A stretch of DNA of 23,064 nt from Cereibacter sphaeroides 2.4.1 (GCF_000012905.2 NC_009007.1:90982-114045); one strand, 5' to 3'. Shown: positions 5,362-23,064, numbered from the stretch's first letter. The notes: generated from the letters alone by a model not told the origin. Made by a program: numbers and translations.

Positions 5362-5365
<4 letters not shown>
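5000..5365 (-). CDS. atpQ: AtpQ (AtpZ/AtpI-like) membrane protein of the N-ATPase operon
   Basis: 121 aa from the ATG at 5363-5365, which overlaps the atpC stop as ATGA. The C-terminal half has two TM helices (FGQIGVLGWVIVLPTLGGVLAGGWL; ITFAAALTMAGAALGLWLALRWM) like AtpZ/AtpI-family proteins. The N-terminal 40 or so residues are a Pro/Gly/Ala low-complexity tract. Confidence 0.7.
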
Positions 5366-7238
<1,873 letters not shown>

Positions 7239-7293
7239 TTACGCCCCGGTCCCCCCGTTGCCCACCCCGCGCGGGAGCCCGCGGGGCGCCTTG

Positions 7294-7353
7294 CCGGATT
7301 ATCCGGAGCCCGCCGGAATTGCAGACGGCGAGGCCCCTGCCCTGCAATTCCGG
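7294..7353. promoter_or_regulatory. Pair of palindromes 100-160 bp upstream of atpD (candidate operator or promoter-region elements)
   Basis: CCGGATtATCCGG (7294-7306) is a 13-bp palindrome. CCGGAATTGCAG (7313-7324) and CTGCAATTCCGG (7342-7353) form a perfect 12-bp inverted repeat with a 17-nt spacer. Function is unknown, and no convincing -35/-10 could be read. Confidence 0.3.
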
Positions 7354-8023: not shown

Positions 8024-8070
8024 AGCCGTGGCCAAAATTGGCCATGGCGTGGCCAATTTTGGCCACGGCT
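8024..8070. repeat. Perfect 21-bp inverted repeat (5-nt loop) made of four phased TGGCCA hexamers; possibly a minus-strand intrinsic terminator or a protein-binding array
   Basis: Bases 8024-8044 pair perfectly with 8050-8070, base by base; the loop is tggcg (8045-8049). TGGCCA occurs at 8029, 8039, 8050 and 8060, giving start-to-start spacing of 10, 11 and 10 bp. On the minus strand the stem is followed by a short T run (TTTTCGCCCC). Confidence 0.6.
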
Positions 8071-8082
8071 CCAGAAAAGGAT

Positions 8083-8155
8083 TCAAAATCAACAGGTTTT
8101 GACCCGGCAGAGCTTTTGGCGCCAAATTCAGCCGAAAATCCTTTATTCATAAAGG
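8083..8155. promoter_or_regulatory. Cluster of A+T-rich palindromes next to the 21-bp hairpin
   Basis: Three elements: TCAAAA-N8-TTTTGA (8083-8102), the perfect 12-bp palindrome TTTGGCGCCAAA (8115-8126), and CCTTTAT-tc-ATAAAGG (8140-8155). All sit in a locally A+T-rich island within very G+C-rich flanks. The TTGGC/GCCAA half-site is shared with the hairpin arms. Confidence 0.35.
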
Positions 8156-8398
8156 CTTGAAGGCAATGGGCAGCCTGCTGCGTCAGGTGTGTCCGCTTCG
8201 GGCGGGAATGGCCGCCGCAAGACTGCCGAACCGGAGCCCGCAGGCGCTCGCTGTCGTGGGCCGGAGGCCTCCCGAGAGCGTGTCCGGGGCCGGCCGCGCC
8301 AGGGAGCGCGCGCGCTCGGGCGGGACCCCCGCGGCCTGCCCGCTCCGAAACCGGAGCGCAAAGGCCGGGGCCATCAGGGAGGCGGTCCTCCTGAAGAT

Positions 8399-8433
8399 CC
8401 CCCGCCTCGCCGCGGCTCGGGGCGAGGCGGGGG
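8399..8433. repeat. Strong G+C hairpin (13-bp perfect stem, 9-nt loop) in ORF-poor DNA
   Basis: Bases 8399-8411 (ccccc gcctcgcc) pair perfectly with 8421-8433 (ggcgaggc ggggg). No T tract follows on either strand. Confidence 0.4.
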
Positions 8434-9120
8434 CCAGACGAGGCGGAGGCCGGTTTCTGGAGCGGCCTTCCCTGCCCGGCCGAAACCGGGAGAGCGCGGC
8501 GGCGCCGGATATCTGCGGGATGCGCGGCCTCCATGGCCTTCGGGAGGCTCGGGGGCTGACGGCCCGAAAGCCGACCGCTGCCGGGTCCCCCTCGCTTTCG
8601 GGGCACTTTCCGGTCTGCCCTCCCGGCGCAAGGATCCTCGCCCTTGCGTGCGGAGCCGGGGCCGATCTCCCTGCCCCGCCGCGCAGGACGCCAACGCCTC
8701 GCCCGTGCGCGAGCCGGGGCGCCCGGCGCGGCTGCGGCAGGACCGGAGAGCGGGCAGGACCGAATGCGGACCTACCCGCGGAGGGGGCGCGGGCCACGGT
8801 CCGACAGCCGGGTCCTTGATCCCTCTGCAATGCACCGCGCGCCATGGGCATTGCCTCTTCAACCAATCTTGACTCTCGAATCCAGCAAATCACTCTCTTC
8901 AATGCCCGCCCCTCGAGGCGCGGCCTCAAAGGTAATTCAGGGGCAATTCGGCATTGCCCCTGGTCCATTCAAGAAGCCGGAGACCGAATTGGTCCTTACT
9001 GTCCTGTCCCCCTTGCTTTCAACCGTGGCTTCGGCCTGTGTCTATGCCCACGGAATACGTCGCCAGAAGCAGACCATCCGCCAGTGCCAGAACCCCGCCA
9101 CGGCGGCCCGCCTCGAGGAA

Positions 9121-9384
9121 ATGCGTCCCCTGGCCCTTCGGAACGGCCATCGTCTTCTGGCGGTGGAAGCGGCCTATCTGCTGTTCGTGCTCGTTCTGGC
9201 GGCGACGGGACTCAACGATGACCCGGAGGGCGCGTCGTTCGTGACGCTGATCCTCGCGCTCACGAGCGGCGGCGTGGTGGCGCTCCTCGCCGTGACCCAT
9301 CTGGCGAGCGACCCGTCGGGGTCCCTCGTGCTTCCGCCGCTCCTGCTCATGGTGTTCGGGGCGGTCTATCCGATCCTGCAGTAA
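9121..9384 (+). CDS. Small hypothetical membrane protein (87 aa; an alternative ATG at 8902 would give 160 aa with a fourth TM segment)
   Basis: Three hydrophobic segments ([20 protein letters not shown]; [22 protein letters not shown]; [18 protein letters not shown]). From about 9121 onward the third codon positions are strongly G/C-biased, as expected for real coding DNA in this genome. No recognisable family. Confidence 0.4.
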
Positions 9385-9402
9385 CGGCCCCAAAGGAAGG
9401 GC

Positions 9403-9438
9403 GGCCGCAGCAGCCTCGGGATCCGAAGAGCTGCGGCC
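9403..9438 (+). terminator. Candidate stem-loop downstream of the small membrane ORF
   Basis: GGCCGCAGC (9403-9411) pairs with GCTGCGGCC (9430-9438), a 9-bp stem with an 18-nt loop. It lies 19 nt after the TAA at 9382-9384. There is no U tract, so it is not a canonical intrinsic terminator. Confidence 0.25.
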
Positions 9439-9509
9439 TACTCCCGGGCGGCGCGGGGCCGCCGGGGGATGGCGCCATGATAGCGCAAACATCGGCCGGG
9501 CGGGACGCG

Positions 9510-9585
9510 GCGAAATGTCGTCGCTTGCGCGGGGCGCGTCCGTCCCCGCGAAATGTCGTCGCCCGCACGGGGCGCGCGGCCGCCC
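9510..9585. repeat. Two tandem 38-bp direct repeats upstream of the epimerase gene
   Basis: Unit 1 (9510-9547) and unit 2 (9548-9585) share gcgaaatgtcgtcgc (15/15), then 11 of the next 14 bases including ggggcgcg. By hand alignment that is 26/29 matches in the core. Confidence 0.6.
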
Positions 9586-9668
9586 GCCCTGCCGGGGTTC
9601 CGGTTCGCCCGCCCCGCCGCTATGGTCCGGCCCGAGGGGGACGCGGCCCCCGGCAGAAGGGGCTCTTC

Positions 9669-10673
9669 ATGCGGCGCATCCTCGTCACCGGCACGGCCGG
9701 CTTCATCGGCTTCCATCTCGCGCGCCTCCTGCTGGCCGAGGGCTTCCGCGTCCATGGCTACGACGGGATGACCGACTATTACGACGTGGCCCTCAAGCGG
9801 CGGCGCCATGCGATGCTGCTGCAGGACCCGAACTTCTCGGCCACGGAGGGCATGCTCGAGGATCAGGCGCTCTTCGACCGCGTGGCCGATGAGTTCGCGC
9901 CCGAGGTGATCGTCCATCTCGCGGCCCAGGCGGGCGTGCGCTATTCGGTCGAGAACCCGCGCGCCTATCTCGATGCGAATGTGATCGGCAGCTTCACCGT
10001 GATGGAGGCCGCGCGGCGGCTGAAGGTGGCCCACCTGATGATGGCCTCCACCTCCTCGGTCTATGGCGCCAACGAGGAGATGCCCTTCCGCGAGACCGAC
10101 AAGGCCGACCGCCAGCTCACGATCTATGCCGCGACCAAGAAGGCCAACGAGAGCATGGGCCACGCCTGGGCGCATGTGCATGGCCTGCCCATCACGATGT
10201 TCCGCTTCTTCACCGTCTACGGCCCCTGGGGGCGGCCCGATCTTGCGCTGTTCCGGTTCGTCGAGGCGATCCTCGAGGACCGGCCGATCGAGATCTACAA
10301 CCACGGCGAGATGTGGCGCGACTTCACCTATGTGGACGATCTCGTCCGCGCGATCCGGCTCCTGATCGAGGCCGTGCCCGGCGGCCCCGAAACGGCGGTC
10401 GAGGAGGACAGCCTCTCGCCCGCAGCCCCCTTCCGCATCGTCAACATCGGCAATTCCGACAAGGTGCGGCTGCTGGATTTCGTGGAGGCGATCGAGGAGA
10501 GCCTCGGGCGGCGCGCGATCCGCAGCTACCTGCCGATGCAGGTGGGCGACGTGCCCGCGACCTGGGCCGACGCGGGGCTTCTCCAGCGCCTGACCGGCTA
10601 CCGCCCGCAGACGGACATCCGCGACGGGATCGCGCAGTTCGTCTCGTGGTATCGCGATTACACGGGGAAGTAG
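9669..10673 (+). CDS. NAD-dependent epimerase/dehydratase, UDP-glucuronate 4-epimerase-like
   Basis: 334 aa from the ATG at 9669, with GAAGGGG about 7 nt upstream. It has the Rossmann motif [19 protein letters not shown], and the catalytic YAATKKANE (YxxxK). Overall it resembles the Cap1J/LpsL-type UDP-GlcA 4-epimerases. The track ORF starting at 9477 is an upstream extension. Confidence 0.85.
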
Positions 10674-10792
10674 TCACACCCGTTTGCCTCGTCGGAAACG
10701 TCGGGTTAGAGAAGAGGCGCCGGGAGATCCGCAGGACTTTCCCGCAGGACAGAAGGCCAGGATGCGGCCCTTCGCAACAAGGAGATGACCGC

Positions 10793-11845
10793 TTGGCACG
10801 ACTGCTTCTCCACATTGGCGCACATAAGACGGCGACCAGCTACATCCAGCGGCGCTTTCATCTCAATCGCGACCTGCTCGCCCGGCACGGCATCCTCTAT
10901 CCCGACATCGGGCCGAACCGGGCCCATCACATTCTCGCCACGCCTTGGATCGACATTCCCGAAATTCCCGAGAGCTATTGGGGCCCCGAAGAAACAGGGT
11001 CGACTGGGCGCACGAGGCAGGACGCTTTCTTCGAGAAATTCACGAAGGACTATGCCTCCCAGAAGGGTACCGTCTTCCTGTCCGCCGAGGTTTTCAGCCG
11101 AGCCCTGCCCCAGCATGTGGACATGGCAGATCTAGCCAAGCGCCTGTCGGATTTCGAAGAGGTGAAGATTGTCTATGTGGTGCGGCACCAGACGGATTAC
11201 ATCCAGTCCATCTGGCTTCAGGTGGCCAAAAACGGCAGGGCGGGAAGATTTGATCCGTTCCTTGCACATGCCCTTCAGAAGCATCTGGCATCTGGGGTAT
11301 GGATCGATCATCATAAGGTGATCGAGAACGTGCTGAGCGGCTTCAGCCGCGACCAGCTCATCCTTTTTGACTATGAGACCATACGCAAACATCCCGAAGG
11401 GGTCATAGGACCTTTTCTCGAGCTTCTGGGATCTCCTCTCCATGTTCATGATCTCGCCGAACTCGACAATCGAGAGGCGAATATCTCTCCAGACCCTCTG
11501 GCAATCTGGATGACACATGCCGCCTTCTTCCCAAACCCGCTCAAGCTCGGCCTTTACCAGAAGCTGAAGGACGCGCTTGACAGGATCAGGGAAAATTACG
11601 GCAAGAAAAAAACCAGCCTCTACACGCGCGCACAGTACGAAGCGGTCATTCAGGCCTCCAGCGAGATGAACATCCCGCTCCGGGGGTGGCTCGAGTCCGA
11701 CAAGGGTGACTCCCCAATCTTCACAACTCCGTCGTCAGATCAGATACTTTTTCGGGACGATCTGACGGAAGCTGATTTGGGTCCTTATCTCCCGGAAGAA
11801 AACCTGCGCATGCGCGAGAAACTCAGGGCTGCCCTCTCGCAATAG
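10793..11845 (+). CDS. Sulfotransferase-like protein (paralog of 18630-19622)
   Basis: 350 aa if started at the TTG at 10793, which has AAGGAG 9 nt upstream. The N-terminus MARLLLHIGAHKTATSYIQ parallels MARVVLHIGTHKTATTTIQ of the other paralog and resembles a 5'-PSB PAPS-binding loop. VVRHQTDYIQSIW resembles a 3'-PB motif. G+C is visibly lower than in the flanks. The 510-aa track ORF is an extension through the epimerase 3' end. Confidence 0.65.
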   Translation: MARLLLHIGAHKTATSYIQRRFHLNRDLLARHGILYPDIGPNRAHHILATPWIDIPEIPESYWGPEETGSTGRTRQDAFFEKFTKDYASQKGTVFLSAEVFSRALPQHVDMADLAKRLSDFEEVKIVYVVRHQTDYIQSIWLQVAKNGRAGRFDPFLAHALQKHLASGVWIDHHKVIENVLSGFSRDQLILFDYETIRKHPEGVIGPFLELLGSPLHVHDLAELDNREANISPDPLAIWMTHAAFFPNPLKLGLYQKLKDALDRIRENYGKKKTSLYTRAQYEAVIQASSEMNIPLRGWLESDKGDSPIFTTPSSDQILFRDDLTEADLGPYLPEENLRMREKLRAALSQ

Positions 11846-11869
11846 AAATAGCGCCTTCGCCCTGCTTTT

Positions 11870-12559
11870 TCATATCAAAACCGTGGCTTCCGGCCCGGCG
11901 AGACGGCTTTCAAGGATTGCAAGGGTGGCATAGGTGGCGTGGCTTGCGAGCCGGATATTCCGACGCGCGAGTTCGCTCATCGTCTTCGTCACCCGCTCGG
12001 GCGGAAGTCGATGCTTATAGGAGTTCTTGGTAACCGGGGCTTCTGCCGCCTGAAGGCCTTGGGATGTCAGAAAATGCGGCAGGTCAGCGCCGATCCGTTC
12101 CATGCGGATCACATGGGTGCGCCCAGAGGGTAGTTCGCTCGCGATCTGCGGCGGCAAATACCATCCCAGATCGAACTGCATGTGGAGCTTGCTTGCCCTC
12201 AGCGCCGCAACGGCTGCCTGTCGTCGCTCCCTCCGGGGATCCGTGAGCGCCTCTGCCAGATCGTTTGCAGTCAGGAAGGCACCGAATATCCGCCGCCAGG
12301 TTTCATTCTTGAGGCGACGCCCGTCCCCGTCGAGGCTCTTGGAGTGAAGATCCCATTCGAAAGCCGACACGAACCGGTCAACCGGATCGCGGGTCAGGAC
12401 GATGAAGATGTCGGAGGGATCGTGCCTCAGAACGGCATCGGCAAGCTGCAGATTGGCGTCATGGACGTGATAGATCTCGAGGCCCGCCACCTGGGGCTGG
12501 AGGGTGCGGATAACGGATTCTCCGGCACATTTGCCGACATGGACGAGATGGTAGGGCAA
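11870..12559 (-). CDS. Sulfotransferase family 2-like protein
   Basis: 229 aa, TTG start at 12557-12559 with GAGAGGA upstream. HVGKCAGESV matches the 5'-PSB motif (h.PK.aGtS.) and LTRDPVDRFVSAF matches the 3'-PB motif (RdP.dR.vS.f) of carbohydrate sulfotransferases of the Sulfotransfer_2 type. Confidence 0.75.
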   Translation of the reverse strand: MPYHLVHVGKCAGESVIRTLQPQVAGLEIYHVHDANLQLADAVLRHDPSDIFIVLTRDPVDRFVSAFEWDLHSKSLDGDGRRLKNETWRRIFGAFLTANDLAEALTDPRRERRQAAVAALRASKLHMQFDLGWYLPPQIASELPSGRTHVIRMERIGADLPHFLTSQGLQAAEAPVTKNSYKHRLPPERVTKTMSELARRNIRLASHATYATLAILESRLAGPEATVLI

Positions 12560-12648
12560 GAAAATCCTCTCTTCTGCAGAAGCAGAGTCACCAGACGGAA
12601 GGTTCTGAGCAACCCGCGGAACGGCGAGTCAGGCCTCGTTCATTGGCA

Positions 12649-13971
12649 TTATCGATCACCATGTTCCAGCCGCTCGATCAGCCGCTCCATGTACCAGGCG
12701 TTGCTGAGTGGATTTACGCCCCAGGACTGGTAGTAGATGTGGGCCACATGGTCGGCAATGCGGGTGCCGTCGCGCAGGACGAGCTGCCGCGCCAGCTCTC
12801 CCCCAGGGCTCAGCTCATCCGCGTAGGTGAAGCTGTCGCGCAGATAGTCGGCATCGTTGTCCATGGCTCCATCCTGGGCATTCGCCACGGTATCCTCTCC
12901 GATCTGTGCCCTCTGGCAGGCTTCACTGACGGATCCTTTTCCCCGGCGGAAGGTCAGGAAGGCCACGTCCGGCCTGCCCTCGCGTTTCAGGCAGGGGTTC
13001 AGATAGCTGTGTGTGTTGACGATGAAGCCCAAGGGCGGCGGATGTCCCGACCGGGGATTGAGGGCGCGTGAGGAGAGCCACAGGTTCCGGACCCGGATCG
13101 CATAGCGGTTCGGATTCTGTTTCCCCATGGAATAAGGGTAGCCGATCACCACCTCGGCGATTTCGAGAGCCCGCCCCGGCAGCTCCTGTTCGGCCTGTGC
13201 CTTGGCCAGAGATCGGACTGCATCGGTAAGATCAGTCGTAGGCTTAGCATCGGGGGTTGGTTCGCTGTAGACGGGGTTTCGGGGAACCCTTCCCACTTGC
13301 CACAGCGGAAGATTGACCAGCCATCGAACCTGGACTGTTTGTTTTTCTTGAGCCGCCTCGATCCGATCGCGCAGTTCGACCATGTAGGCATGCACGATCT
13401 GTCCGGCGCTTCGCACGTCAAAGCCCGCGCCGGCCGTCTCCCGGCAACCTGCTGGCTTGTCCGAATCCGGGAGGAGCCGGAGCATCGGCCCGTCAACGTT
13501 GATCGCCGAGACGGGGATGCCGGCATCGGTCAGCCGTCTCACATTGCGCTCGAACTCGAACGCGGCGGCTGCACGGCCCAAAGCCTCTGGCGAAAGGCTG
13601 GCGTCACAGCGGGCGCCCGACAGGCCCACGCCCGCCTCATAGGTCACCTGCAGCCCCGTTCGCGCGACAATGGCGGCAAGTCCTCCCAGATCTGCATCGG
13701 TCAGATAGGTATCGTCCGGGCGGCGTTTTTCTCCCTTGGCGCCGATCCCCCGGAAGTCGGTGGTCATCAGGAAGGAGGCATTGAGCACGATCCCCTCCAC
13801 CCCCGCGCGGTCGAGCTCCTGCCAGAGCGGCAGGTTCGCGGCGGCGAAGATCTCGCGGTTGTCGAGCGCCCGGGGGCCGGGGCCGTAGATCGCCTCGGGG
13901 GCCGCCTCCGCCCCCGCGCCGAGGGCGAGGGACAGAAGGGCTGTGAGCAGGGTCGTCCGGAGCAGGGTCAT
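12649..13971 (-). CDS. Secreted hypothetical protein (Sec signal peptide; no recognisable domain)
   Basis: 440 aa from the ATG at 13969-13971, with GGGAGG 5 nt upstream. The N-terminus MTLLRTTLLTALLSLALGAGAEAAP is a typical signal peptide. I cannot assign the remainder to a family. Stop is TAA at 12649-12651. Confidence 0.7.
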   Translation of the reverse strand: MTLLRTTLLTALLSLALGAGAEAAPEAIYGPGPRALDNREIFAAANLPLWQELDRAGVEGIVLNASFLMTTDFRGIGAKGEKRRPDDTYLTDADLGGLAAIVARTGLQVTYEAGVGLSGARCDASLSPEALGRAAAAFEFERNVRRLTDAGIPVSAINVDGPMLRLLPDSDKPAGCRETAGAGFDVRSAGQIVHAYMVELRDRIEAAQEKQTVQVRWLVNLPLWQVGRVPRNPVYSEPTPDAKPTTDLTDAVRSLAKAQAEQELPGRALEIAEVVIGYPYSMGKQNPNRYAIRVRNLWLSSRALNPRSGHPPPLGFIVNTHSYLNPCLKREGRPDVAFLTFRRGKGSVSEACQRAQIGEDTVANAQDGAMDNDADYLRDSFTYADELSPGGELARQLVLRDGTRIADHVAHIYYQSWGVNPLSNAWYMERLIERLEHGDR

Positions 13972-14086
13972 GGGAGCCTCCCGTGGCGGTTTGCCAGAGG
14001 ATGCCGCATTTCCCGGGACGGGCAACCCCCGGCGCCGCGCTTGGGCGCCGGGCGGCGCTCCTCTGCCCGGGGCCGGCCGGGCGGCC

Positions 14087-15028
14087 TCAGAACAGGAAGT
14101 CGTCGCGGGTGAGCATCTCGGAGGAGATCCCCTCGAGCGTGATCCGGTTCGCGCCCACCTCGATCACGACATGGCCGTTCACCTCCGACAGATGGTTCGC
14201 CATCAGATCGCCGAAGCCGGTGATGGCCCCCACCCCGCGCAGGTCGATCCACTCGCCTTCCATGTCGGGCGAGAAGTCGCGGATCCGGTCCCGGCCGAAA
14301 TTGCCGGCGAAGACGAACCGGTCCGCCCCGCCGCCGCCGATCAGGATGTCGTTGCCCGCCCCGCCCACCAGCACGTCGCGCTCCCACTGGCCGTCGAGCC
14401 GGTCGTTGCCCGCGCCGCCGAGCAGCAGGTCGTTGCCGGTGCCGCCGAAGAGCGCATCGGCCCCCTCCATGCCGCGCAGCACATCCGCCCCGCCCCGCCC
14501 CTCGAGCCGGTCGTTGCCGAGCCCGCCCGACAGCGTCTCGGCCAGACGGCTGCCCAGAAGCACATCGGCCCGCGCCGAGCCTATGACGATCTCGATCGAT
14601 TTCACCACATAGGGGCCGAAGGGCTCGGGCCGGAAGTCGTAGCGCCCCGCGGCCAGATCCACCCGGAAGCCGAGCCGCAGGTTGGTGTAGCCGCTCAGGT
14701 CCAGCGTGTCGGTCCCCGCCCCGCCATAGACATCGTCGGCGAGATCCACGCCGCGGATGCGGAACGTGTCGTTGCCGGCCTGGCCGTAGCAGGCGTCATG
14801 GTAGAAGCCGCCGTCCAGAAGGTCGTCGCCATCGCCGCCATAGAGCCGGTCCACGCCGTCGCGGCCGTTGATCGTGTCGTTGCCGTCCCCGCCGACCAGC
14901 CGGTCGGCCCCGGGCCCGCCGTTCAGCAGGTCGTTGCCGGGGGTGCCGGCCGGGGTCTGGGCGAGCGCGCTCTGGGCCAGGGGAGCGGACAGCGGGGAGA
15001 GGCTGGGGAAAGGAGAGACTTCAGGCAT
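14087..15028 (-). CDS. RTX-type calcium-binding repeat protein (probable type I secretion substrate)
   Basis: 313 aa from the ATG at 15026-15028. It has multiple GGxGxDxUx nonapeptides (GGPGADRLVGGDGNDTINGRDGVDRLYGGDGDDLLDGG; GGLGNDRLEGRGGADVLRGMEGADALFGGTGNDLLLGGAGNDRLDG; GGAGNDILIGGGGADRFVF) and no Sec signal. Confidence 0.85.
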   Translation of the reverse strand: MPEVSPFPSLSPLSAPLAQSALAQTPAGTPGNDLLNGGPGADRLVGGDGNDTINGRDGVDRLYGGDGDDLLDGGFYHDACYGQAGNDTFRIRGVDLADDVYGGAGTDTLDLSGYTNLRLGFRVDLAAGRYDFRPEPFGPYVVKSIEIVIGSARADVLLGSRLAETLSGGLGNDRLEGRGGADVLRGMEGADALFGGTGNDLLLGGAGNDRLDGQWERDVLVGGAGNDILIGGGGADRFVFAGNFGRDRIRDFSPDMEGEWIDLRGVGAITGFGDLMANHLSEVNGHVVIEVGANRITLEGISSEMLTRDDFLF

Positions 15029-15209
15029 TGTTTCCAAAATTCCTTCAATAGGGCGCGCCAAACGGGATTTTCTATGTCTGGTCTGAAATCGCGCGTCTTC
15101 CGGAAGAAATCCACGCCGTCCCAACCTTCTGGAAAGAAGGCCCGCCGTCAATCTGCTTGGAAGGACAGGGGCGCCGGGTCCCGGCACCCGCCGGGGCGGG
15201 CCGGAAACC

Positions 15210-16511
15210 TCAATACCAGCGGCCCATCGAGATCAGCTCGACCTGCGCGGCAAGGCGCGTGTTCGTGGCGCTGAAGACCGAGACGCCGACGCTGGTCGTC
15301 GTCCGCCCGGTCAGCCGCGGGCTGAGCGCCTGGGCTCCGTTCGAGACCACGCTCGAGACCGTGACGAGGCCCGTGGCGGTGGAGAAGGCGGCGGGAAAGG
15401 GGGCCACCACATCGGCGGAGGCCGAGGTGGTCACCTTCTGCCAGCAGCTCTGCGTCCCGTCCTGATGGCGGATGTAGCGGCCGTTGGCGTTGCCCGCGCT
15501 CTCGACGATCCCGCCCGCGACCCAGGGCGACCAGGCGCCCTCGCCGCGGGCGCGCGAGAAGAGGATGCCCGGCATGAGGCCCCCGCCCCCCGCCTCCACG
15601 AGAAAGAGCTGCACCTCGCCCGCCCCGCGGCTCTGGTGAAGGAGAAGGCCCGCCTGCACGCCCGCAGGGCCGCCGCTGCTGCCCTGCGCGCTGTCGTAGC
15701 CGTAAAAGCCCGGCGCGAGCGCGCCGTCCACCGCCCCGGCATTGCCGACGAGCGGCGCCGGCGCCCCCAGCCCGAAGGCCCCCACCGTCAAGAGCCGGCC
15801 CGGGGTCGCATCGGCGGCCGAGGCCTGCACCGCGCTTCCGGTGAGGCTGCCCGTCACCACCGCCCCCTGCGGCAGCGCCACCCGCCCGCTCGCCCGGTCG
15901 GCGCTGAGCGCGGTGCGGAAGGAAGTGCCGTCCGGGCTGACCTTCAGCGCGAAGTCGTCGCTGCCCGCAAGCCCGATTTCGGCCCGGCCCGACCAGTCGG
16001 ACTGGAACAGGAGGCTCGCCGTCTCGGCCTCCGCGGCCTTGTTGACCTTGATCCGGTGGCTCGCACCCGCATGGGTGAAGAGCGTGGCGGGGCCCGCCAC
16101 CGCGAGGCGGTTGGTGGCATCGGCCGAGGTGGCGATGCCCAGCGAGGGAAATTCCGGCAGAAGGCCGATCAGCGTGCGCCAGCCCTGGGCGGTGAAGACG
16201 AGCCCCGCTCCCTCGGCCAGCACGAAGGTCTGCCAGCCCGGCTGCGGGGCGAGGAAACGCCAGACCGCCGCCTCCGCGTCCCAGACCGCAAAGGCCTCCT
16301 CCCGCCCTGCCCAGGCCCCTTCGGCGCCCGGGCCCACCAGATGCCGCGCCCCCGCGGCCGGGGCGGCGGGCGGCGCGGAGCGGTCGCGGTCGAGCACGGC
16401 GGGCTGGACCAGCACATCGAGCCGCTGCAGCGCCTCGTTGTGGGTCACATGTTTCTGCGCCTGGGAAGGCAGGATGTAGGGAAGCGACAGGATCGGCGAG
16501 GCGTCGGACAT
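15210..16511 (-). CDS. DUF2793-type, phage-tail-fibre-like protein
   Basis: 433 aa from the ATG at 16509-16511. A GTG at 16529 would add 6 aa. The N-terminus MSDASPILSLPYILPSQAQKHVTHNEALQRLDVLVQ and the internal ..NKAAEAETASLLFQSDWSGRAEIGLAGSDDFALKVSPDG.. match, from memory, the DUF2793 family found in alphaproteobacterial prophage, tail-fibre and GTA-associated proteins. The alternative-frame 488-aa ORF is Arg/Gly-rich junk. Confidence 0.75.
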   Translation of the reverse strand: MSDASPILSLPYILPSQAQKHVTHNEALQRLDVLVQPAVLDRDRSAPPAAPAAGARHLVGPGAEGAWAGREEAFAVWDAEAAVWRFLAPQPGWQTFVLAEGAGLVFTAQGWRTLIGLLPEFPSLGIATSADATNRLAVAGPATLFTHAGASHRIKVNKAAEAETASLLFQSDWSGRAEIGLAGSDDFALKVSPDGTSFRTALSADRASGRVALPQGAVVTGSLTGSAVQASAADATPGRLLTVGAFGLGAPAPLVGNAGAVDGALAPGFYGYDSAQGSSGGPAGVQAGLLLHQSRGAGEVQLFLVEAGGGGLMPGILFSRARGEGAWSPWVAGGIVESAGNANGRYIRHQDGTQSCWQKVTTSASADVVAPFPAAFSTATGLVTVSSVVSNGAQALSPRLTGRTTTSVGVSVFSATNTRLAAQVELISMGRWY

Positions 16512-16647
16512 GAAAAACCCCTTCGGCACAGGATCGGCCGCCGCAGGCTAGGCGGAGAGGGTGAACGGCCGGTGGCCGGAGCGTGCGCTGCCTCCTCCGC
16601 CGGGCGCGGGACACTTCCGCACGGCCCGCCTGCAGGGCGCATCCGGC

Positions 16648-16789
16648 TCGGGGGCCGCCGGACGCGCGGGATCTCCGCCGTCACGCCAGCCGCAGTCTGC
16701 CCGCCGGACGGTATCCGGTTCGGGGCCGCCGGCGTGGGGGCTCCTCGAGGATCGGCGGCAGGCGGGGCTCGACAGGTCGGGGCCGCCGG
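16648..16789. repeat. Three dispersed direct copies of TCGGGGCCGCCGG in a divergent intergenic region
   Basis: Copies lie at 16648-16661 (with one extra G), 16720-16732 and 16777-16789. Copies 1 and 2 also share the upstream ATCCGG(c/t), and copies 1 and 3 share the downstream ACGCG. Start-to-start spacing is 72 and 57 bp. Confidence 0.5.
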
Positions 16790-17113
16790 ACGCGGGAGGT
16801 CTGCCCTGCCCTTCTCCGGCCTGCCGCGGCGACTCCGACGGGCGCTTCGGGCACCGCAACCGGGACGGGGACGGCGCGCCTCCTCCCCCGGAAAAGCCAT
16901 TCCCTTTGAAAGCGGAGTCGAATTTCATTGTTTTCCGGCCCCACTGCCTGCCGAAAGGAACAGGCGCCCCCTGCCCCGGCTTGAAGAAGCCTCGTCGCCG
17001 TCCATAGTCGGAGGACCACCCTCGCCGCCCGCCCTCGCAGCCAGGTCCGGCAGGGCGCTCCCGCGCCCGATCCGGCCGCCCGCCCTGACCCAGCCAGAGG
17101 TTCACCGCGCTTC

Positions 17114-18472
17114 ATGACGTCCGACCAGACCCCTGCCCGCCCAGCCCTTCTCGTCCTCGGAATGCACCGCTCCGGCACCTCGGCCCTTGCGGGCGTGCTC
17201 GGCCGGGCGGGCTTCGCGCTGCCGCAGGAGTTGATGCCTCCGACCGAGCACAATCCGCGGGGCTATTTCGAATCCACCCGGATCTTCCGGCTGAACGATG
17301 CGCTTCTGGCCGCGGCGGGCTCTTCCTGGGACGACTGGCGGGCCTTCGATGCGGACTGGCACCTCTCGCCCGCGGCCGAGCCGTTCCATGCCGAGGCGCA
17401 GGAGGCGCTCGCGGCGGAATTTCCCGGCACGGCGCCGATCGTGCTCAAGGATCCGCGGATCTGCCGGCTGCTGCCCTTCTGGACCCGCGCGCTGACCGAG
17501 GCGGGCTTCCGGCCGCTGGCCGTCTGCACCCACCGCCCCGCGCGCGAGGTGGGCGCCTCGCTCGCGCGCCGCAACGGCTGGCCCGAGGCGCGCGGCCTCC
17601 TGCTCTGGCTGCGCCATGTGCTCGATGCCGAGGCCCAGACCCGCGGCAGGCCCCGGGTCTTCGTCTCCTACGACGGGCTGCTCGCGGACTGGCGGGGAAC
17701 GCTCGGGCGCATCGCGGAGGCCTTCGATCTGGCGCTCCCGCGCCCGCTCGACGAGGCCGCGCCCGAGATCGAGGCCTTCCTCTCGGCCGACCTGCGCCAT
17801 GCGCCGGAGACGCCCGCGGCCGCGGCGGGCCTGTCCGACTGGATCGCCCGCCCCGAGGAGATCCTCGACCGGAAGGCCGCCGGAGAGGACCGCCCCGGAG
17901 ACCGCGAGACGCTCGACCGGATCGCGGCCGAAGTCGCGGCCGCGGCCCCCCTGCTGGCAGACCTCTCCGGAGCGGTGGAGGAACAGGGCGCCCGGCTGGA
18001 GCGCGAGGCGGCCCTGCGCCACGAGGCCCAGACCATCCTGCAGCAGGAGAGGCAGCGGCTCGACGACCTGACGGCCGAGCTGCAGCTCCAGCTCCATCAC
18101 AGGACCCTCCATGTCGCGGAACTGGAGCGTCATGCGGGGGAGCTGGCCCAGCAGCTCCGGCAGAAGACGCAGCACGCGGCCGAACTCGAGCGCCATGCGG
18201 AAGAGCTCGCCCAGCAGCTCCGGCAGCAGAGGTCGCACGCGGCCGAGCTCGAGCGCCATGCCGGAGAGCTCTCGGCCCTGACCCACGAGCTGCGCCAGCA
18301 GGTGCATCACAAGGGCCGGCATGTCCAGGAACTGGAAGCCCACTCGGGAGAGCTCGAAGCGCGGCTTCTCGCTCTCGAGGCCGAGCATGCGGCTCTTCTG
18401 GGCAGCACCTCCTGGAAGGTCACGCACCCCCTGCGCCGCATGTCGCTGGCCTTGCGTCGTCCGAAGACGTGA
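17114..18472 (+). CDS. Sulfotransferase domain fused to a C-terminal tandem-repeat coiled coil
   Basis: 452 aa. LLVLGMHRSGTSALAGVL is a 5'-PSB-like loop and THRPAREVGASLARRNGW is 3'-PB-like. From about residue 285 the sequence is heptad-rich. It contains 21-aa repeats (HVAELERHAGELAQQLRQKTQ / HAAELERHAEELAQQLRQQRS / HAAELERHAGELS... / HVQELEAHSGELEARLLALEAE) and ends with ..STSWKVTHPLRRMSLALRR. Confidence 0.8.
   Translation: MTSDQTPARPALLVLGMHRSGTSALAGVLGRAGFALPQELMPPTEHNPRGYFESTRIFRLNDALLAAAGSSWDDWRAFDADWHLSPAAEPFHAEAQEALAAEFPGTAPIVLKDPRICRLLPFWTRALTEAGFRPLAVCTHRPAREVGASLARRNGWPEARGLLLWLRHVLDAEAQTRGRPRVFVSYDGLLADWRGTLGRIAEAFDLALPRPLDEAAPEIEAFLSADLRHAPETPAAAAGLSDWIARPEEILDRKAAGEDRPGDRETLDRIAAEVAAAAPLLADLSGAVEEQGARLEREAALRHEAQTILQQERQRLDDLTAELQLQLHHRTLHVAELERHAGELAQQLRQKTQHAAELERHAEELAQQLRQQRSHAAELERHAGELSALTHELRQQVHHKGRHVQELEAHSGELEARLLALEAEHAALLGSTSWKVTHPLRRMSLALRRPKT
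18110..18382 (+). repeat. In-frame 63-bp tandem repeats (coiled-coil coding), two well conserved and two degenerate
   Basis: Units start at 18110, 18173, 18236 and 18320. Units 1 and 2 differ at about 13 of 63 positions by hand count. Unit 3 matches unit 2 closely over its first 33 or so nt and then diverges. All units are in frame with the CDS. Confidence 0.7.
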
Positions 18473-18629
18473 GGAGCCCTCCCGGCATGGCAGACCGCCT
18501 TTCTCCCGGAGGGCCTGCCCGCCTCAGAGAGGCTGCCTGACCGCACCGGCCCCCTTATTGCAACCTCTGCCGCGCCTGCTGTCACGCTCCTGCGGCTCCA
18601 CGGATCCCCGCAGCCCGCGACCTCGGGCA

Positions 18630-19622
18630 TCAGCCCCGGCGGGCGCGATAGATCCAGCGGCTGCACCGGATCCAGAACGAGGTGTTGAGCCCATCGCGAT
18701 AGACACGATTCTCCTCGGGATCGCTTTCCGAGATGCGGAACTCCGGCTGCACCGCCTTCCGGCGTTCCGACAGACGGCCGTTACGCTCCTTCGCATATGC
18801 GAAGAGCTGCTGGAACTCCGGGTATGTCCACAGGCAGGACTTGGCCTCTTCGCCATATTCGATGCGAAAGGCACCTGTCGCACAGTCGATCACCCAAGGG
18901 GCCGCTTGGTCCGGTTCCGTGATGACACAGGCCGCAAAGGTCGGCAGCGCCAGCGGCGAAACGTTTGACAGCCCGTCATGGACAACCTGAAGCGAAGAGG
19001 CTGAGAGACCGCAGCCAAGCGTGTCCAGCATGGCACCCACGACCCCGTCCCGATGTCGGCGGCAGGCATCAAAATCGAGGAAAGTGATCTCTTCGGGCGC
19101 GAAGGCAGAAAGCAGATGATCGTAGAGCAGGTTGTAGTCGATCCACAGCCCATCCGTCATGTCGCGTTTGAGAACGGAATCGACCATGGTGGAGGGCTTG
19201 GGCGGTTGCCGCTCCTTGGAAGCCTGCAGATAGATCGACTGCATGAATTGCCATTGCTCACGCAACACGCAAACCACGGACACGCTTTCGAAATCCGAGA
19301 GCAGTTCGCGCACGGCCCGGAAGTCCACCTGAGCACCGGGCTTGCCGCGTGAGAACTCTTCGGAACTGAGAACCAGCGTGCCCGGAACATGAGCGTAGTC
19401 ACGCGTGAGCTGTTTCAGCGTCGCGATACTGCCCTGAGGCAGGGCATACATGTCGGGCAGCTTGTTCCATTCCATCACGAGCCCATGGTGGCCCGCGACG
19501 CGGCTGAGGCGCGGATAGATCACCCCATGCTGCCGCAGAAGGTCCGCATTATGCGCGAACATGTCCTGGATCGTGGTGGTTGCCGTCTTGTGCGTTCCGA
19601 TGTGCAGAACGACTCTTGCCAT
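18630..19622 (-). CDS. Sulfotransferase-like protein (paralog of 10793-11845)
   Basis: 330 aa, ATG at 19620-19622 immediately after the upstream gene's stop (TGAATG). It has MARVVLHIGTHKTATTTIQ and CVLREQWQFMQSIYLQ motifs. It is collinear with the 10793 gene (..DYA..GT..LS.E.FSR.., LSDFE.V, G.WID), at roughly one third identity by eye. G+C is visibly lower. Confidence 0.65.
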   Translation of the reverse strand: MARVVLHIGTHKTATTTIQDMFAHNADLLRQHGVIYPRLSRVAGHHGLVMEWNKLPDMYALPQGSIATLKQLTRDYAHVPGTLVLSSEEFSRGKPGAQVDFRAVRELLSDFESVSVVCVLREQWQFMQSIYLQASKERQPPKPSTMVDSVLKRDMTDGLWIDYNLLYDHLLSAFAPEEITFLDFDACRRHRDGVVGAMLDTLGCGLSASSLQVVHDGLSNVSPLALPTFAACVITEPDQAAPWVIDCATGAFRIEYGEEAKSCLWTYPEFQQLFAYAKERNGRLSERRKAVQPEFRISESDPEENRVYRDGLNTSFWIRCSRWIYRARRG

Positions 19623-21878
19623 TCAGTGTGACCTCATGCCGTGCGCGGGCGGCTCCGCAAGATGGGTGGCGGGCTCCGCCGCTCCCAGATGCTGCCGCAT
19701 CACCTGGAGATTGAGATCGCCGAAGGTCAGGCTCGGCTCGAGGACGGCCTTCTCGGCCCATTCGTTCCAGGCATTGACGAAAAGCTCGCGGCGATAGGAG
19801 GCGGGCACGCGGCGCTCGAGCGCGCCCGCGAGCCAGACGTTGAAGGTGGCGGGATTGGCGCCGTAGGCCACATGGCCCGCCGCCCCGCGCCGGGCCGTAT
19901 TGTCCCAGCCCGGCATGACGCCTGCGATCGTGGCCTTGGGCAGGGTGCGGACATAGGTCTCCGACAGGGCCCGGCGCGCGACGGCGGCGTAATCGTAGAT
20001 CAGCCCCGAGAAGGCGGGGTTCATCGCGGCGGGCATCCGGTTGCCGTCGGGACCGCCGAAGAGATAGTCCGGCCCCTTCACCAGCCCGTGCGGCGGCATC
20101 TCGACCCAGAAGTCGAAGAGCCCCTCGGGCACCGGATGGGCGCCCTCGACATGGAACCGCACCGCGCCGAGCTCGACCTCGCCGATCCCCGCCCGCCGCC
20201 AGCCCTCGCGCAGCCGCGCCACGCTGGCCTGCGGATCGGGCATGTCCTCGGGACGGTAGATTACGAAGCGCGGACGGCGGCCGTCGGGGCGGGCGTAGCG
20301 CGGATCGCGCAGATAGGGGGCGGTGTCGGCGGCGAGCTTCTCCTCGAAGCCCGCGCCATAGGTCTGTTCGAGGAGCACGGTGCCCGACAGCCCGTCCCAG
20401 TTGCGCCGCCAGCTCTCGTTGGCCCAGCAGAGATAGAAGGGGAAGTCGATCTCGGGCCGCGCCATCAGCCGGTCGATCGGCGCCTCGAGGATGCGGCGGC
20501 CGTCGAACCAGTAGTGATAGACGCAGAAGGCGTCGATCCCGGCCTCGCGGGCCATCGCCGCCTGCTCGCCCATCACCTCGGTGGCGCGCAGGTCGTAAAA
20601 GCCCAGATCGGCGGGCAGCATCGGCTGGAGATGGCCCTCGAACATCGAGGGCGCCTTCACCACCGAGCGCCATTCGGTGAAGCCCTTGCCCCACCAGGCG
20701 TCGTTCTCGGGCACGGGGTGGAACTGGGGCAGGTAGAAGGCGCTGACGAAGGCGGGCTTCGCGGGCGCCGCCGCCGCGGCCGGGCGGAGCTCGCTCGTCT
20801 GCAGGACCTTCTGGCCCGCCCGCGCGGTCAGATAGCCCAGCACCCGCTCGATCGCATGGGCGAGGGTGCCGTCGACCTGACCCTCCTCGAGATCGAAATC
20901 CTCGAGCCGGAGCTGCAGGCTGCGCAGAAGCCCCAGCACCAGCGGCTTCACCCAGTAGATCGAGCCCGCCGGGAAGGAGAGCGCCTCGCGGTCGAGCGGG
21001 ATCTCGATGCGCTGAAGCAGATGGCGCGTGGCCTCGACGTTCGAGCCCCACCATTGGGTGCCGGTGTAATGCTGGCCGTCGGCCACCCAGAAGCCCGCCT
21101 CGGGCGCCTCGACGAAGGCCTCGAGCTTCTCCTCGAGCCCGGTCTCGGGCAGGATCCCCTCGATCAGATGCTTCCGCCAGAGATCGCCGTCCTGCCGGTG
21201 GGGCGATTTCTTCGTGTGGAACTTGCAGACCGCCCGGTAGCCGTCGAAGGCGCCCGCATTGAGCAGGGTGACGAAGGGCAGGATGTCGCGACCGCGGTTC
21301 GGCATCGGGGTCACGAAGGCGCCGGGGAAGTCGGCGCGGATCTCCTCGGCCAGCGCGTCGGTCTCCTCGCCGCGATAGGTCAGCGTGACATAGAGGTCGA
21401 ACGGGATGCGGAGCCGCCGCAGACGGGCGGCGAACTCGGGCCAGAGATCGGGATAATAGACATGCACCGCCACCGCATAGGGCGCGGTCTGGCGCCCGTG
21501 CTCGAAACGGACCTGCGGCATGCCGCGGGCGGGCAGCGCCACGACCTCGGGCAGCTCCTTGGTCAGGCGCTGCTCGGCATGGCCCACGCGGACATAATGC
21601 AGGAAGGGCGGCACGCCGGCCTCCGCCACGTCGGGGTGATAGCGCAGATAGGCCTGGGGCGAGAAGTCCGGGTTCGGCCGGTAGCCCAGCCGCTCGCCAT
21701 AGGCGATGTAGTGTTTCTCGGGATATTTCAGGTAGATCGGGTTCAACCCGGGGTAGGCCCCCCGATAATAGGTCCGGTCGAAAAGCCCGCTTTTCCGGAT
21801 GGCGCGGAGATAGCGCCGCTCCTCGCCCGTCAGGACCAGAATCCGGGCAAACCGGCGCAGACGGTGAAATTTCAGCAT
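19623..21878 (-). CDS. Two-domain glycosyltransferase: N-terminal RgpF (rhamnan synthesis F)-like plus C-terminal WbsX/GH99-like
   Basis: 751 aa from the ATG at 21876-21878, with GGAG 6 nt upstream; a TTG at 21890 would add 4 aa. The N-terminal half has AVHVYYPDLWPEFAARLRRLRIPFDLYVTLTY, MPNRGRDILPF and KFHTKKS (RgpF-like). The C-terminal half has FYLPQFHPVPENDAWWGKGFTEWRSV, LPADLGFYDL, FCVYHYWFDGRRILE and YLCWANESWRRNWDG (WbsX-like). Confidence 0.85.
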   Translation of the reverse strand: MLKFHRLRRFARILVLTGEERRYLRAIRKSGLFDRTYYRGAYPGLNPIYLKYPEKHYIAYGERLGYRPNPDFSPQAYLRYHPDVAEAGVPPFLHYVRVGHAEQRLTKELPEVVALPARGMPQVRFEHGRQTAPYAVAVHVYYPDLWPEFAARLRRLRIPFDLYVTLTYRGEETDALAEEIRADFPGAFVTPMPNRGRDILPFVTLLNAGAFDGYRAVCKFHTKKSPHRQDGDLWRKHLIEGILPETGLEEKLEAFVEAPEAGFWVADGQHYTGTQWWGSNVEATRHLLQRIEIPLDREALSFPAGSIYWVKPLVLGLLRSLQLRLEDFDLEEGQVDGTLAHAIERVLGYLTARAGQKVLQTSELRPAAAAAPAKPAFVSAFYLPQFHPVPENDAWWGKGFTEWRSVVKAPSMFEGHLQPMLPADLGFYDLRATEVMGEQAAMAREAGIDAFCVYHYWFDGRRILEAPIDRLMARPEIDFPFYLCWANESWRRNWDGLSGTVLLEQTYGAGFEEKLAADTAPYLRDPRYARPDGRRPRFVIYRPEDMPDPQASVARLREGWRRAGIGEVELGAVRFHVEGAHPVPEGLFDFWVEMPPHGLVKGPDYLFGGPDGNRMPAAMNPAFSGLIYDYAAVARRALSETYVRTLPKATIAGVMPGWDNTARRGAAGHVAYGANPATFNVWLAGALERRVPASYRRELFVNAWNEWAEKAVLEPSLTFGDLNLQVMRQHLGAAEPATHLAEPPAHGMRSH

Positions 21879-21941
21879 GTCCGTCTCCAAATGAATGGCC
21901 GATACCTAACAACTACCTGAGGTAGACGCAAAGGGACGCGG

Positions 21942-22742
21942 TCAGGCACCTTCATTCAGAAGCATCCGGTGATGACGGTTCAGCAACAGCATGCCGAAGA
22001 AGAGACAGACAAGGCTTACGGAATAGGCATAGAGCGGGTCGACCAGCCGGGCGTCGTAGGTCGCGAAGAAGCCCTGACGCATCTTCGCGATCACATGGGT
22101 GAGCGGATTGTAGGACAGAAGCGTGCGGAAGGGCTCGGGCACGGTCTCCATCAGGAAGAAGATCCCCGACAGCAGGAACATCGGCCGGTTGAGGATGGCC
22201 CAGACCCGTTCCCAGACCGGCGCCACGCTGAAGAGATAGCAGTTGAGCGTGCCCACGCCCATCGCCAGCGCCGCCGCCATGCTGAAGGCCTCGAGGATCG
22301 CGGGCAGATCGAGGCTCACGTTCAGATCGTAGAAGGCGATGATGCCCACCATCACGATCACGAAGACCACGAGGTTCGTCAGCGTGTTGAGCAGGAACCG
22401 GCTCAGGATCGCATCGAAGAAGCTCACCGCCGGATAGGCGAGAAGCGGGCGCGAGAAGCGGATCGCCTGGCCGATCTTCGCGGTGAGCGCGGTGTAATAC
22501 ATGAAGGGCAGATAGCCCGTGGCATAGAAGAGCGGGAAGTTGTTGCCCAAGGGCGGCGAGCGCATCAGGAAGGAGAAGACCACCGTCAGCAGCGTCAGCG
22601 CCGCCACCGGCTCGGCCACCGCCCAGAGATAGCCGCCCGGAGAGCGGCCGTAGCTCGTGGCCATCTCGCGCAGCATGAGCGAGAGGACCGACCGGCCCCA
22701 GAGGAAGCGCCGCCCTGCAAGAAGACCCGAGAGCCCCGTCAT
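21942..22742 (-). CDS. ABC-2 type polysaccharide export permease (KpsM/Wzm family)
   Basis: 266 aa from the ATG at 22740-22742. An alternative ATG at 22815-22817 adds a 25-aa Gly/Ala-rich extension. It has six hydrophobic segments and sequence typical of capsule/O-antigen ABC-2 permeases (..LMLREMATSYGRSPGGYLWAVAEP.., ..SYNPLTHVI..). Confidence 0.85.
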   Translation of the reverse strand: MTGLSGLLAGRRFLWGRSVLSLMLREMATSYGRSPGGYLWAVAEPVAALTLLTVVFSFLMRSPPLGNNFPLFYATGYLPFMYYTALTAKIGQAIRFSRPLLAYPAVSFFDAILSRFLLNTLTNLVVFVIVMVGIIAFYDLNVSLDLPAILEAFSMAAALAMGVGTLNCYLFSVAPVWERVWAILNRPMFLLSGIFFLMETVPEPFRTLLSYNPLTHVIAKMRQGFFATYDARLVDPLYAYSVSLVCLFFGMLLLNRHHRMLLNEGA

Positions 22743-23064
22743 TCCGCCTGCCCCAGTCGCCTGTCCCCGTCCGTCTCCGGCCCCGCCACCGGAGGGGGCG
22801 GCGGCCGGAGCGGCCATAACATCACTTGCAACCAGCGGTGTAAAGCTGGCATACCTTGGGCGATCAGCCCCGAGCCCGCGGACCCGCCATAGTGAACGCT
22901 TCCAAGCCGTCGGCCCCGCAAGCGCCTCTTGCCGACCCGCGATCTTCCCCGAATTCCGAGCCCGCGGAGCCTCCGCGCGGGGCCGGATCCGCGGCCCCCG
23001 GCCCGGTCGCCCGCCCCCGTCTGGGCGGCGCGGGCCCGGCCGGCGCCCGCGTCCGCGATCCCGC

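Follow-up and report, generated by a model that had tools for sequence, protein, structure and literature searches.

Gene content of the plasmid pA locus

The surface-polysaccharide locus described here lies in a stretch of 23,064 nucleotides from Cereibacter sphaeroides 2.4.1 (NC_009007.1:90982-114045), referred to below as the window, and contains four candidate sulfotransferase genes close to genes predicted to supply an activated sugar, to polymerize a glycan, and to export it. Positions 9400 to 23064 of the window show 100% identity to NZ_CP030273.1, the record of the 124,316-bp plasmid pA from Cereibacter (Rhodobacter) sphaeroides 2.4.1. Because the window has a GC content of about 70%, the GC content at third codon positions (GC3) was used to tell real genes from spurious open reading frames. 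The resulting gene calls agree with the RefSeq gene boundaries across the whole region of interest, which comprises 10 genes, designated G1 to G10. A first-pass annotation, made from the sequence without database searches, had delimited the locus at positions 9669 and 22742. At the first of these positions stands the start codon (ATG) of the epimerase gene, and at the second RefSeq places the start of the KpsM-like gene, so that the limits match gene ends exactly, but they split a larger island in two. The genes are as follows.

G1, 9669-10673, plus strand: NAD-dependent sugar epimerase, homolog of UDP-glucuronate 4-epimerases, predicted supply of UDP-galacturonate (UDP-GalA)
G2, 10793-11845, plus strand: sulfotransferase-like protein of the HIGAHKTAT family, paralog A
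G3, 11870-12559, minus strand: sulfotransferase, probably of the Sulfotransfer_2 type, with the least support among the four candidates
G4, 12649-13971, minus strand: secreted protein of an orphan family
G5, 14087-15028, minus strand: calcium-binding protein with RTX (repeats-in-toxin) repeats, probably secreted by a type I system
G6, 15210-16511, minus strand: DUF2793 protein, tail-fibre-like
G7, 17114-18472, plus strand: Sulfotransfer_3-type sulfotransferase with a C-terminal coiled coil
G8, 18630-19622, minus strand: sulfotransferase-like protein of the HIGTHKTAT family, paralog B, abutting G9
G9, 19623-21878, minus strand: two-domain glycosyltransferase, RgpF-like and WbsX/GH99-like, predicted polymerase
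G10, 21942-22742, minus strand: KpsM-like ABC-2 permease, capsule-type exporter

G1 is an extended epimerase of the short-chain dehydrogenase/reductase type (Pfam Epimerase, E = 7.6e-54). Its closest distinct relatives in the PDB are 5U4Q (362 bits), 6ZL6/6ZLA (E = 4e-41), and MoeE5 (6KV9; E = 7e-37), all of which we take to be UDP-glucuronate 4-epimerases, and structures of GalE, of the dTDP-glucose dehydratase RmlB, and of the UDP-glucuronate decarboxylase UXS rank below them. Because the three top-ranking relatives are presumably of this type, "UDP-glucuronate 4-epimerase-like" is a fair label for G1. The enzyme reaches no NCBIfam equivalog threshold, and the conversion of UDP-glucuronate to UDP-galacturonate is its predicted reaction. 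G9 combines a full match to WbsX (PF14307, 375.8 bits, residues 379 to 726) with a match to RgpF (PF05045, 120 bits, residues 105 to 354), the latter covering the C-terminal half of the RgpF model. G10 shows several membrane-like segments and passes the Pfam threshold for ABC2_membrane (PF01061, 39.4 bits, cutoff of 26.9). The first-pass annotation had named these three genes as a UDP-glucuronate 4-epimerase-like enzyme, a fused RgpF/WbsX glycosyltransferase, and a KpsM-like ABC-2 permease, and all three names stand, the first backed by the nearest solved relatives and the other two by profile matches.

ABC-transporter-dependent export, as the same annotation proposed, is borne out by the genes around G10. 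Divergent from this kpsM homolog and directly outside the window lie the kpsE- and kpsT-like genes for which it had recommended a search: a KpsE-like gene (TIGR01010, the BexC/CtrB/KpsE model, E = 4e-62) and a gene for a KpsT-like ATPase with matches to the glycan-export ATPase models VexC, Wzt, and TagH, so that the three components are encoded together. All of their scores stay under the NCBIfam equivalog cutoffs (for G10, KpsM with 80 bits against a cutoff of 300, and VexB with 58 bits), and the three proteins are treated here as homologs whose functional equivalence is presumed rather than assured. Beyond the exporter genes follow ParB, ParA, and RepA; then a GT2 glycosyltransferase and the dTDP-rhamnose operon rfbCBDA; and, beyond these, two sulfotransferases, kdsA, and a methyltransferase. 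The RPA-family replication initiator, ParAB, rfbCBDA, and kpsMTE are all contained within about 12 kb of pA.

Both out-of-window sulfotransferases (positions 40065 to 41939 in the pA record, L007) are clear passes of the Sulfotransfer_3/1 models, with 45 and 49 bits. The density of sulfotransferase genes, which had been called striking on the basis of the four genes in the window, is therefore real and was understated, two more lying about 12 kb past the window. Plasmid pA further carries the sulfate ABC importer sbp-cysTWA, a SulP transporter, and giant repeat proteins, and as a whole it looks geared to the uptake and use of sulfate. R. sphaeroides possesses a characterized "type III" sulfate-activating complex with the active sites of both ATP sulfurylase and adenosine 5'-phosphosulfate kinase (PMC2576392); because of this complex, the donor 3'-phosphoadenosine 5'-phosphosulfate (PAPS) is available in the host.

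Four sulfotransferase candidates of three types

G2, G3, G7, and G8 each contain a loop of the 5'-phosphosulfate-binding type and a motif of the 3'-phosphate-binding type, R-x3-[DEQ]-x3-S. The 5'-loop sits directly after the first strand in the structural models of G8 and G3. Its lysine never varies in the G8 family and hardly varies in the G3 family; in the G7 family, the corresponding HRSGTS residues are conserved at 90% or more. The arginine and serine of the 3'-motif are invariant in all three family alignments. None of the four proteins contains membrane-like segments, which fits cytoplasmic PAPS-using enzymes. BLASTP detects no similarity among the three families. The first-pass annotation, which had described four sulfotransferase-like genes of three types with these motifs, was accordingly right on the number of genes, on the motifs, and on the division into types. 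The profile searches that it had advised divide the candidates: G2 and G7 score above their Pfam cutoffs, and G8 and G3 score below, with matches at the family level (Sulfotransfer_1 in 7 of 37 and Sulfotransfer_2 in 16 of 23 members, respectively, at E ≤ 0.01). Because Pfam support is uneven in this way, G8 and G3 were examined further. The Stf0 family, to which the rhizobial enzyme LpsS belongs, was considered as well and was rejected, since no protein of the window matches it.

G2 and G8 are paralogs with 32% identity over the full length (E = 6e-52). Their motif pairs are HIGAHKTATS and RHQTDYIQS in G2 and HIGTHKTATT and REQWQFMQS in G8. G2 matches Sulfotransfer_1 with 38 bits (cutoff of 22; E = 1.6e-9), and the sole result of a search of PDB sequences with G2 is a marginal match to human SULT2B1, in which RHQTDYIQS is aligned to the 3'-phosphate-binding motif RNPRDVVVS. 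G8 has at least 388 relatives, almost all from Rhodobacterales and almost all labeled hypothetical, and no precomputed Pfam domain is found among those listed. In the alignment of 37 family members, K12, S86-S87-E88-E89, R121, and S129 are invariant; besides Sulfotransfer_1, a Pfam scan of 37 members yields Sulfotransfer_3 in 5 of them and no other family. The AlphaFold (AF2) model of G8 calculated from the 37-member alignment reaches a predicted local distance difference test score (pLDDT) of 95.2 and a predicted template-modeling score (pTM) of 0.90. Sulfotransferases occupy all of the top 10 places (E = 3e-4 to 3e-3, with a probability of at least 0.99) and about 40 of the top 50 in the Foldseek list of this model; the best matches, almost all to PAPS-dependent enzymes, include the bacterial structure 3RNL (E = 3e-4), cytosolic SULTs, NDST, and 3-OST. 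G2 and G8 are each very probably true sulfotransferases. Two G2/G8-superfamily paralogs from Shimia, which carry more canonical motifs, were tried as a statistical bridge to known families, but they show no Pfam match and were unusable for this purpose.

G3 belongs to a small family of 24 relatives and carries the motifs HVGKCAGES and RDPVDRFVS. In the alignment of 23 members, HVGKCxGES and RDPxxRFxSAFxW are near-invariant. The matches to Sulfotransfer_2 (PF03567) in 16 of the 23 members, counted at E ≤ 0.01 and with a best value of 8.8e-6, dominate over one stray Glyco_trans_1_2 match. The AF2 model (pLDDT of 89.5) places sulfotransferases at the top of its Foldseek list, with NDST1 (TM-score of 0.48) and the heparan-sulfate 6-O (HS6ST, 0.46) and 2-O enzymes among the matches, which is suggestive of a sulfotransferase fold. 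The assignment draws on subthreshold and family-level matches, and G3 is likely, with less assurance than its neighbors, to be a true sulfotransferase.

G7, with the motifs GMHRSGTS and RPAREVGAS, passes the Sulfotransfer_3 model (PF13469) narrowly, with 28.3 bits against a cutoff of 27, over positions 1 to 214 of the 216 in the profile. A single-sequence search of PDB sequences gave no meaningful match for G7. Its catalytic domain has at least 1,834 matches, many of which carry PF13469 or are named sulfotransferases, and the enzyme is in all likelihood a genuine member of this class. The catalytic domain is followed by a tail of about 150 residues that forms a coiled coil and matches the coiled-coil models of SMC/Rad50. 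This coiled coil is built from about five units of a 21-residue repeat, visible in the DNA as a 63-bp tandem repeat of 2.9 copies (positions 18089 to 18271). The protein ends in S-T-S-W-K-V-T-H-P-L-R-R, and the motif S-x-S-W-[KR]-x-T-x-P-[LM]-R is found in 32 of 61 long G7 homologs, whereas all short homologs lack it. The protein P0145 combines a 100% identical catalytic domain with a different C-terminal motif, so that recombination of the tail seems to be independent of the catalytic domain.

The arrangement of a Sulfotransfer_3 domain and a coiled coil resembles that of WbdD of the Escherichia coli O9a O-antigen pathway, in which a chain-terminating kinase/methyltransferase is joined to a coiled-coil molecular ruler; the likeness is offered as a lead only. 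By this analogy, G7-type enzymes might be chain-terminating, length-measuring sulfotransferases. A sulfate cap at the nonreducing end would then stop the elongation of an ABC-exported glycan, with the number of repeats setting its length; sulfate is not known to serve as a chain terminator. In the same proposal, the G2/G8 family would be a new polysaccharide sulfotransferase family hard-wired to the RgpF/WbsX polymerase in Rhodobacterales. The combined proposal is regarded as quite unlikely.

A different question is whether all four candidates transfer sulfate at all. The G2/G8 family or G3 might be P-loop-kinase-like proteins, other transferases (for example, enzymes of glycan phosphorylation), or inactive relics, in which case the glycan would carry little or no sulfate. 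Several results lean in this direction. G8 stays below the Sulfotransfer_1 cutoff (18 bits against 22) and G3 below that of Sulfotransfer_2 (17.2 bits against 22). Neither protein finds a meaningful match in the PDB by single-sequence or family-profile search. The Foldseek matches of both are modest (TM-scores of 0.3 to 0.5 overall and 0.4 to 0.5 for G8), a few nucleotide kinases appear further down the list for G8, and the structural matches of G3 are weak (best E = 9e-3). In G8, the phosphosulfate-binding loop HKTATT has alanine at the position of the canonical glycine. Profile-profile comparison (hhalign) of the G8, G3, and G7 families yields probabilities of 3% or less, which is not significant; because the families are too divergent, this outcome neither supports nor refutes a common fold. 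Against this view stand the composition of the G8 and G3 families, in which sulfotransferases are the sole and the dominant Pfam families, respectively, the above-threshold score of G2 together with the alignment of its R-x3-D-x3-S motif to that of SULT2B1, the predominance of sulfotransferases among the top 50 structural matches of G8, and the conservation of the 5'-loop lysine and of the 3'-motif arginine and serine in the G8 and G3 families. Furthermore, no Walker-A motif of the form GxxGxGK[ST] is present. Inactive or differently acting enzymes are judged very unlikely to account for the locus.

Coupling to the predicted polymerase and the number of acceptors

Action of G8 on the G9 product finds its best support in the conservation of this gene pair. 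The start of G8 directly follows the stop codon of G9, with a gap of zero bases. The layout of KpsT-KpsE divergent from KpsM-RgpF/WbsX-G8 recurs on a Jannaschia plasmid, on pAge77 of Thalassovita, and on a 262-kb metagenomic contig, and G8-family genes adjoin RgpF/WbsX genes also in Cereibacter azotoformans, in Salipiger abyssi, and, with the two in reversed order, in Paracoccus yeei. The adjacency is kept in at least five named genera of Rhodobacterales. Members of the G8 family are seen in Cereibacter, Jannaschia, Salipiger, Thalassovita, Sulfitobacter, and Paracoccus; because the family is missing from Phaeobacter plasmids, it marks a subset of the plasmids of this kind. The GC3 of G8 is low despite the zero gap to G9 and the retention of the pair across genera.

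In the proposed mechanism, the region G1 to G10 would be one arm of a surface-polysaccharide island on the RepA-type plasmid pA, of the "biofilm plasmid" kind. The glycan would be built in the cytoplasm by G9, probably together with the GT2 enzyme whose gene lies on the far side of the replication module, from dTDP-rhamnose provided by the plasmid-borne rfbCBDA and possibly from UDP-galacturonate provided by G1. PAPS-dependent sulfotransferases would O-sulfate the glycan in the cytoplasm, and the sulfated product would leave the cell through the KpsM/KpsT/KpsE-type ABC system. G8 would be the dedicated sulfotransferase of the G9 polymer, and G2, G3, G7, and the two enzymes outside the window would have accessory roles, adding further sulfates to the same glycan or acting on other envelope glycans. 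The identities of the genes, the sulfotransferase-type folds and motifs, the synteny of G8 with G9 and the exporter, and the synthesis of PAPS by the host are established, and the sugar composition, the actual transfer of sulfate, the acceptor of each enzyme, and the action of all of them on one polymer are predictions. The best reading of the locus, given a probability of about 0.6, is a pathway for a glycan that leaves the cell through an ABC transporter, is probably sulfated, and contains rhamnose and possibly uronic acid. C. sphaeroides accordingly probably makes a sulfated surface polysaccharide, and similar clusters are already known in other bacteria.

Two parts of the first-pass annotation fare less well. 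It had proposed a uronic-acid-containing glycan; the epimerase is present, but G1 is the single gene behind this proposal, and rfbCBDA and the RgpF domain point at least equally to rhamnose. It had also suggested multisite sulfation of one heavily sulfated polymer, which the arrangement of the genes does not bear out, as a syntenic link to the predicted polymerase and the exporter is confined to G8 and the candidates occupy at least three transcription units.

These last two points also speak for another explanation, in which the sulfotransferases serve several acceptors. G8 would then modify the KpsMT-exported glycan, and G2, G3, G7, and the two enzymes outside the window would act on other molecules, for instance on lipopolysaccharide (LPS), lipo-oligosaccharide, or glycolipids, or on glycans attached to secreted or flagellar proteins. 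The clustering would reflect a plasmid "surface-modification" island assembled piecemeal. Nothing comparable to the synteny of G8 is found for G2, G3, or G7, and the four candidates are interleaved with the nonbiosynthetic genes G4 to G6, which encode the RTX, DUF2793, and orphan proteins. G2, G3, G4, and G8 have GC3 values of 0.68 to 0.76, whereas those of all other genes are 0.88 to 0.92; G2 (0.68), for example, differs from the adjacent G1 (0.92), and the range for G2, G3, and G8 is 0.68 to 0.74, compared to about 0.9 for their neighbors. Separate acquisition and different expression are both possible causes of these low values. Alleles vary among strains: in KD131 the G2 allele differs and a methyltransferase is added, and in IL106 (C. 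sphaeroides f. sp. denitrificans, plasmid L015) G3, G8, and kpsM are annotated as short fragments, with no coding sequence listed for G9, which reflects either a decayed locus or frameshift errors in the assembly. Rhizobia, moreover, provide a precedent for separate sulfotransferases for LPS (LpsS) and capsule (KpsS). On the other side, strains of C. sphaeroides retain G1 to G10 as one block in this order, the intervening DNA encodes no pathway for another acceptor, and other Rhodobacterales loci stack several genes of the G2/G8 superfamily beside glycosyltransferases. Because one such locus, in Shimia, contains three of them, arrays of multiple sulfotransferases appear to be a recurring design. 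A division of the enzymes among several acceptors is judged possible but doubtful.

Together with this scattered organization, the atypical GC3 of G2, G3, and G8, the variation among strains, and the modest scores of G8 and G3 described above, three further observations weigh against the proposed mechanism. G9 has no solved relative in the PDB by sequence, so that its role as the polymerase and the nature of its product are predictions from the domain matches. A search of the literature found no report of a sulfated polysaccharide or of a plasmid-encoded sulfotransferase in R. sphaeroides. Finally, none of kpsC, kpsS, and kpsD is annotated on pA, which has only kdsA; the search covered the plasmid, and the chromosomes may carry these genes. 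KpsD is the outer-membrane export protein of such systems, and KpsC and KpsS are the enzymes of the lipid-anchoring 3-deoxy-D-manno-octulosonic acid (Kdo) linker. Assignment to the canonical group 2 capsule loci was rejected because these three genes are not annotated on the plasmid.

Scans for promoters and terminators gave results at chance level, and an Rfam scan gave nothing. Of the genes between G3 and G7, G4 encodes a protein with a signal-peptide-like N terminus and four cysteines invariant in its family, which has 35 representatives among 1.84 billion proteins. It shows no Pfam match, with all members scanned, and no PDB match, even with the family profile. G4 sits between a sulfotransferase gene and the RTX gene and is kept across C. 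sphaeroides strains. G5 contains five stretches matching HemolysinCabind (E = 1e-31), and a type I secretion ABC/HlyD pair is encoded elsewhere on pA. G6 matches DUF2793 (PF10983) with 99 bits. In Shimia and Jannaschia, DUF2793 genes (L010, 11586-12839; L011, 16459-17457) likewise neighbor rhamnose operons or members of the G8 family. Because both kinds of genes recur in related loci, the RTX and DUF2793 genes are regular companions of such islands rather than intruders. DUF2793 is also found in Rcc00171 of the R. capsulatus gene transfer agent, a protein that is needed for gene transfer, is encoded next to polysaccharide export genes, and has a proposed role in attachment to the cell surface (PMC5026251). 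The position of a DUF2793 gene beside glycan genes hints that genes for a receptor-binding protein and for its receptor lie side by side, and glycans of this type might serve as receptors for gene transfer agents or phages. A literature search yielded no report connecting sulfotransferases to gene transfer agents.

Upstream of G1, the window contains a second, plasmid-borne ATP synthase operon on the minus strand (positions 774 to 7193), with the subunits in the order beta, epsilon, a gap, subunit I, a, c, b, alpha, and gamma; the delta subunit is absent from the annotation. This gene order is presumably that of the N-type ATPases. The adjoining stretch of about 2.4 kb (positions 7239 to 9668) has a single annotated gene, for a hypothetical protein of 131 amino acids, and two other strains of C. 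sphaeroides lack it almost completely. Part of the stretch, about 145 bp long (roughly positions 8127 to 8270), is also found, with about 82% identity, on several further plasmids of Cereibacter.

Relation to known sulfated-glycan systems

The added interest of the pA locus lies in a previously unannotated sulfotransferase family fixed beside a polymerase, in the density of sulfotransferases on one plasmid, and in a tractable host. If the proposed reading is true, this model organism would offer up to six polysaccharide sulfotransferases from at least three families, which would also be candidate enzymes for the microbial production of sulfated polysaccharides. One of these families would be G2/G8, which has hundreds of relatives and is fixed next to the enzyme that is probably its polymerase. 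The attachment phenotypes attributed to plasmids with rhamnose operons in marine Rhodobacterales would furthermore gain a chemical basis, a sulfated and hence polyanionic glycan of rhamnose and uronic acid. According to a 2024 review, few bacterial polysaccharide sulfotransferases have been characterized, and the Pfam models are biased toward the enzymes of animal glycosaminoglycans (PMC11625862).

Within the alphaproteobacteria, PAPS-dependent sulfation of capsule and LPS is represented by KpsS from Mesorhizobium loti and LpsS from Sinorhizobium meliloti. M. loti KpsS has been reported to lack the consensus motifs expected by the Pfam models, and S. meliloti LpsS is the Stf0-family enzyme mentioned above. 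The rhizobial enzymes are single sulfotransferases, in contrast to the cluster of four to six on pA. An arrangement with several sulfotransferases reportedly exists in the synechan (xss) cluster of Synechocystis PCC 6803, which is said to assemble a sulfated exopolysaccharide. That cluster is cyanobacterial and chromosomal and relies on a pathway of the Wzx/Wzy type instead of an ABC transporter.

In genetic setting, pA is close to the RepA-I "biofilm plasmids" of roseobacters described by Michael et al. in 2016, the core of which consists of a rhamnose operon and a KpsMT-type exporter; curing of these plasmids abolishes attachment in several roseobacters, and sulfotransferases are nowhere mentioned in that paper (PMC5030684). 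Plasmid pA likewise combines RepA and ParAB with a neighboring KpsMT-type exporter and rfbCBDA, a likeness based on gene content. Phaeobacter plasmids share the epimerase and DUF2793 genes with pA at the DNA level, but they lack the G8 family.

Among characterized systems, the pA locus comes closest to the Vibrio sp. KMM 8419 capsule cluster, which encodes rml, RgpF, kpsM/T/E, three sulfotransferases, and cysNDC and gives rise to a chemically proven sulfated capsule of rhamnose and glucose (PMC11641403). The Vibrio cluster is chromosomal, extends over about 80 genes, and includes its own cysNDC, kpsD, and kpsS. The pA locus is compact and sits on a plasmid that carries two sulfotransferases besides the four of the window; its PAPS synthesis is encoded elsewhere in the genome, kpsD and kpsS are not annotated on the plasmid, and its product is predicted from the genes alone. 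Common to both are a dTDP-rhamnose operon, an RgpF-type glycosyltransferase, a Kps-type ABC exporter, and several sulfotransferases.

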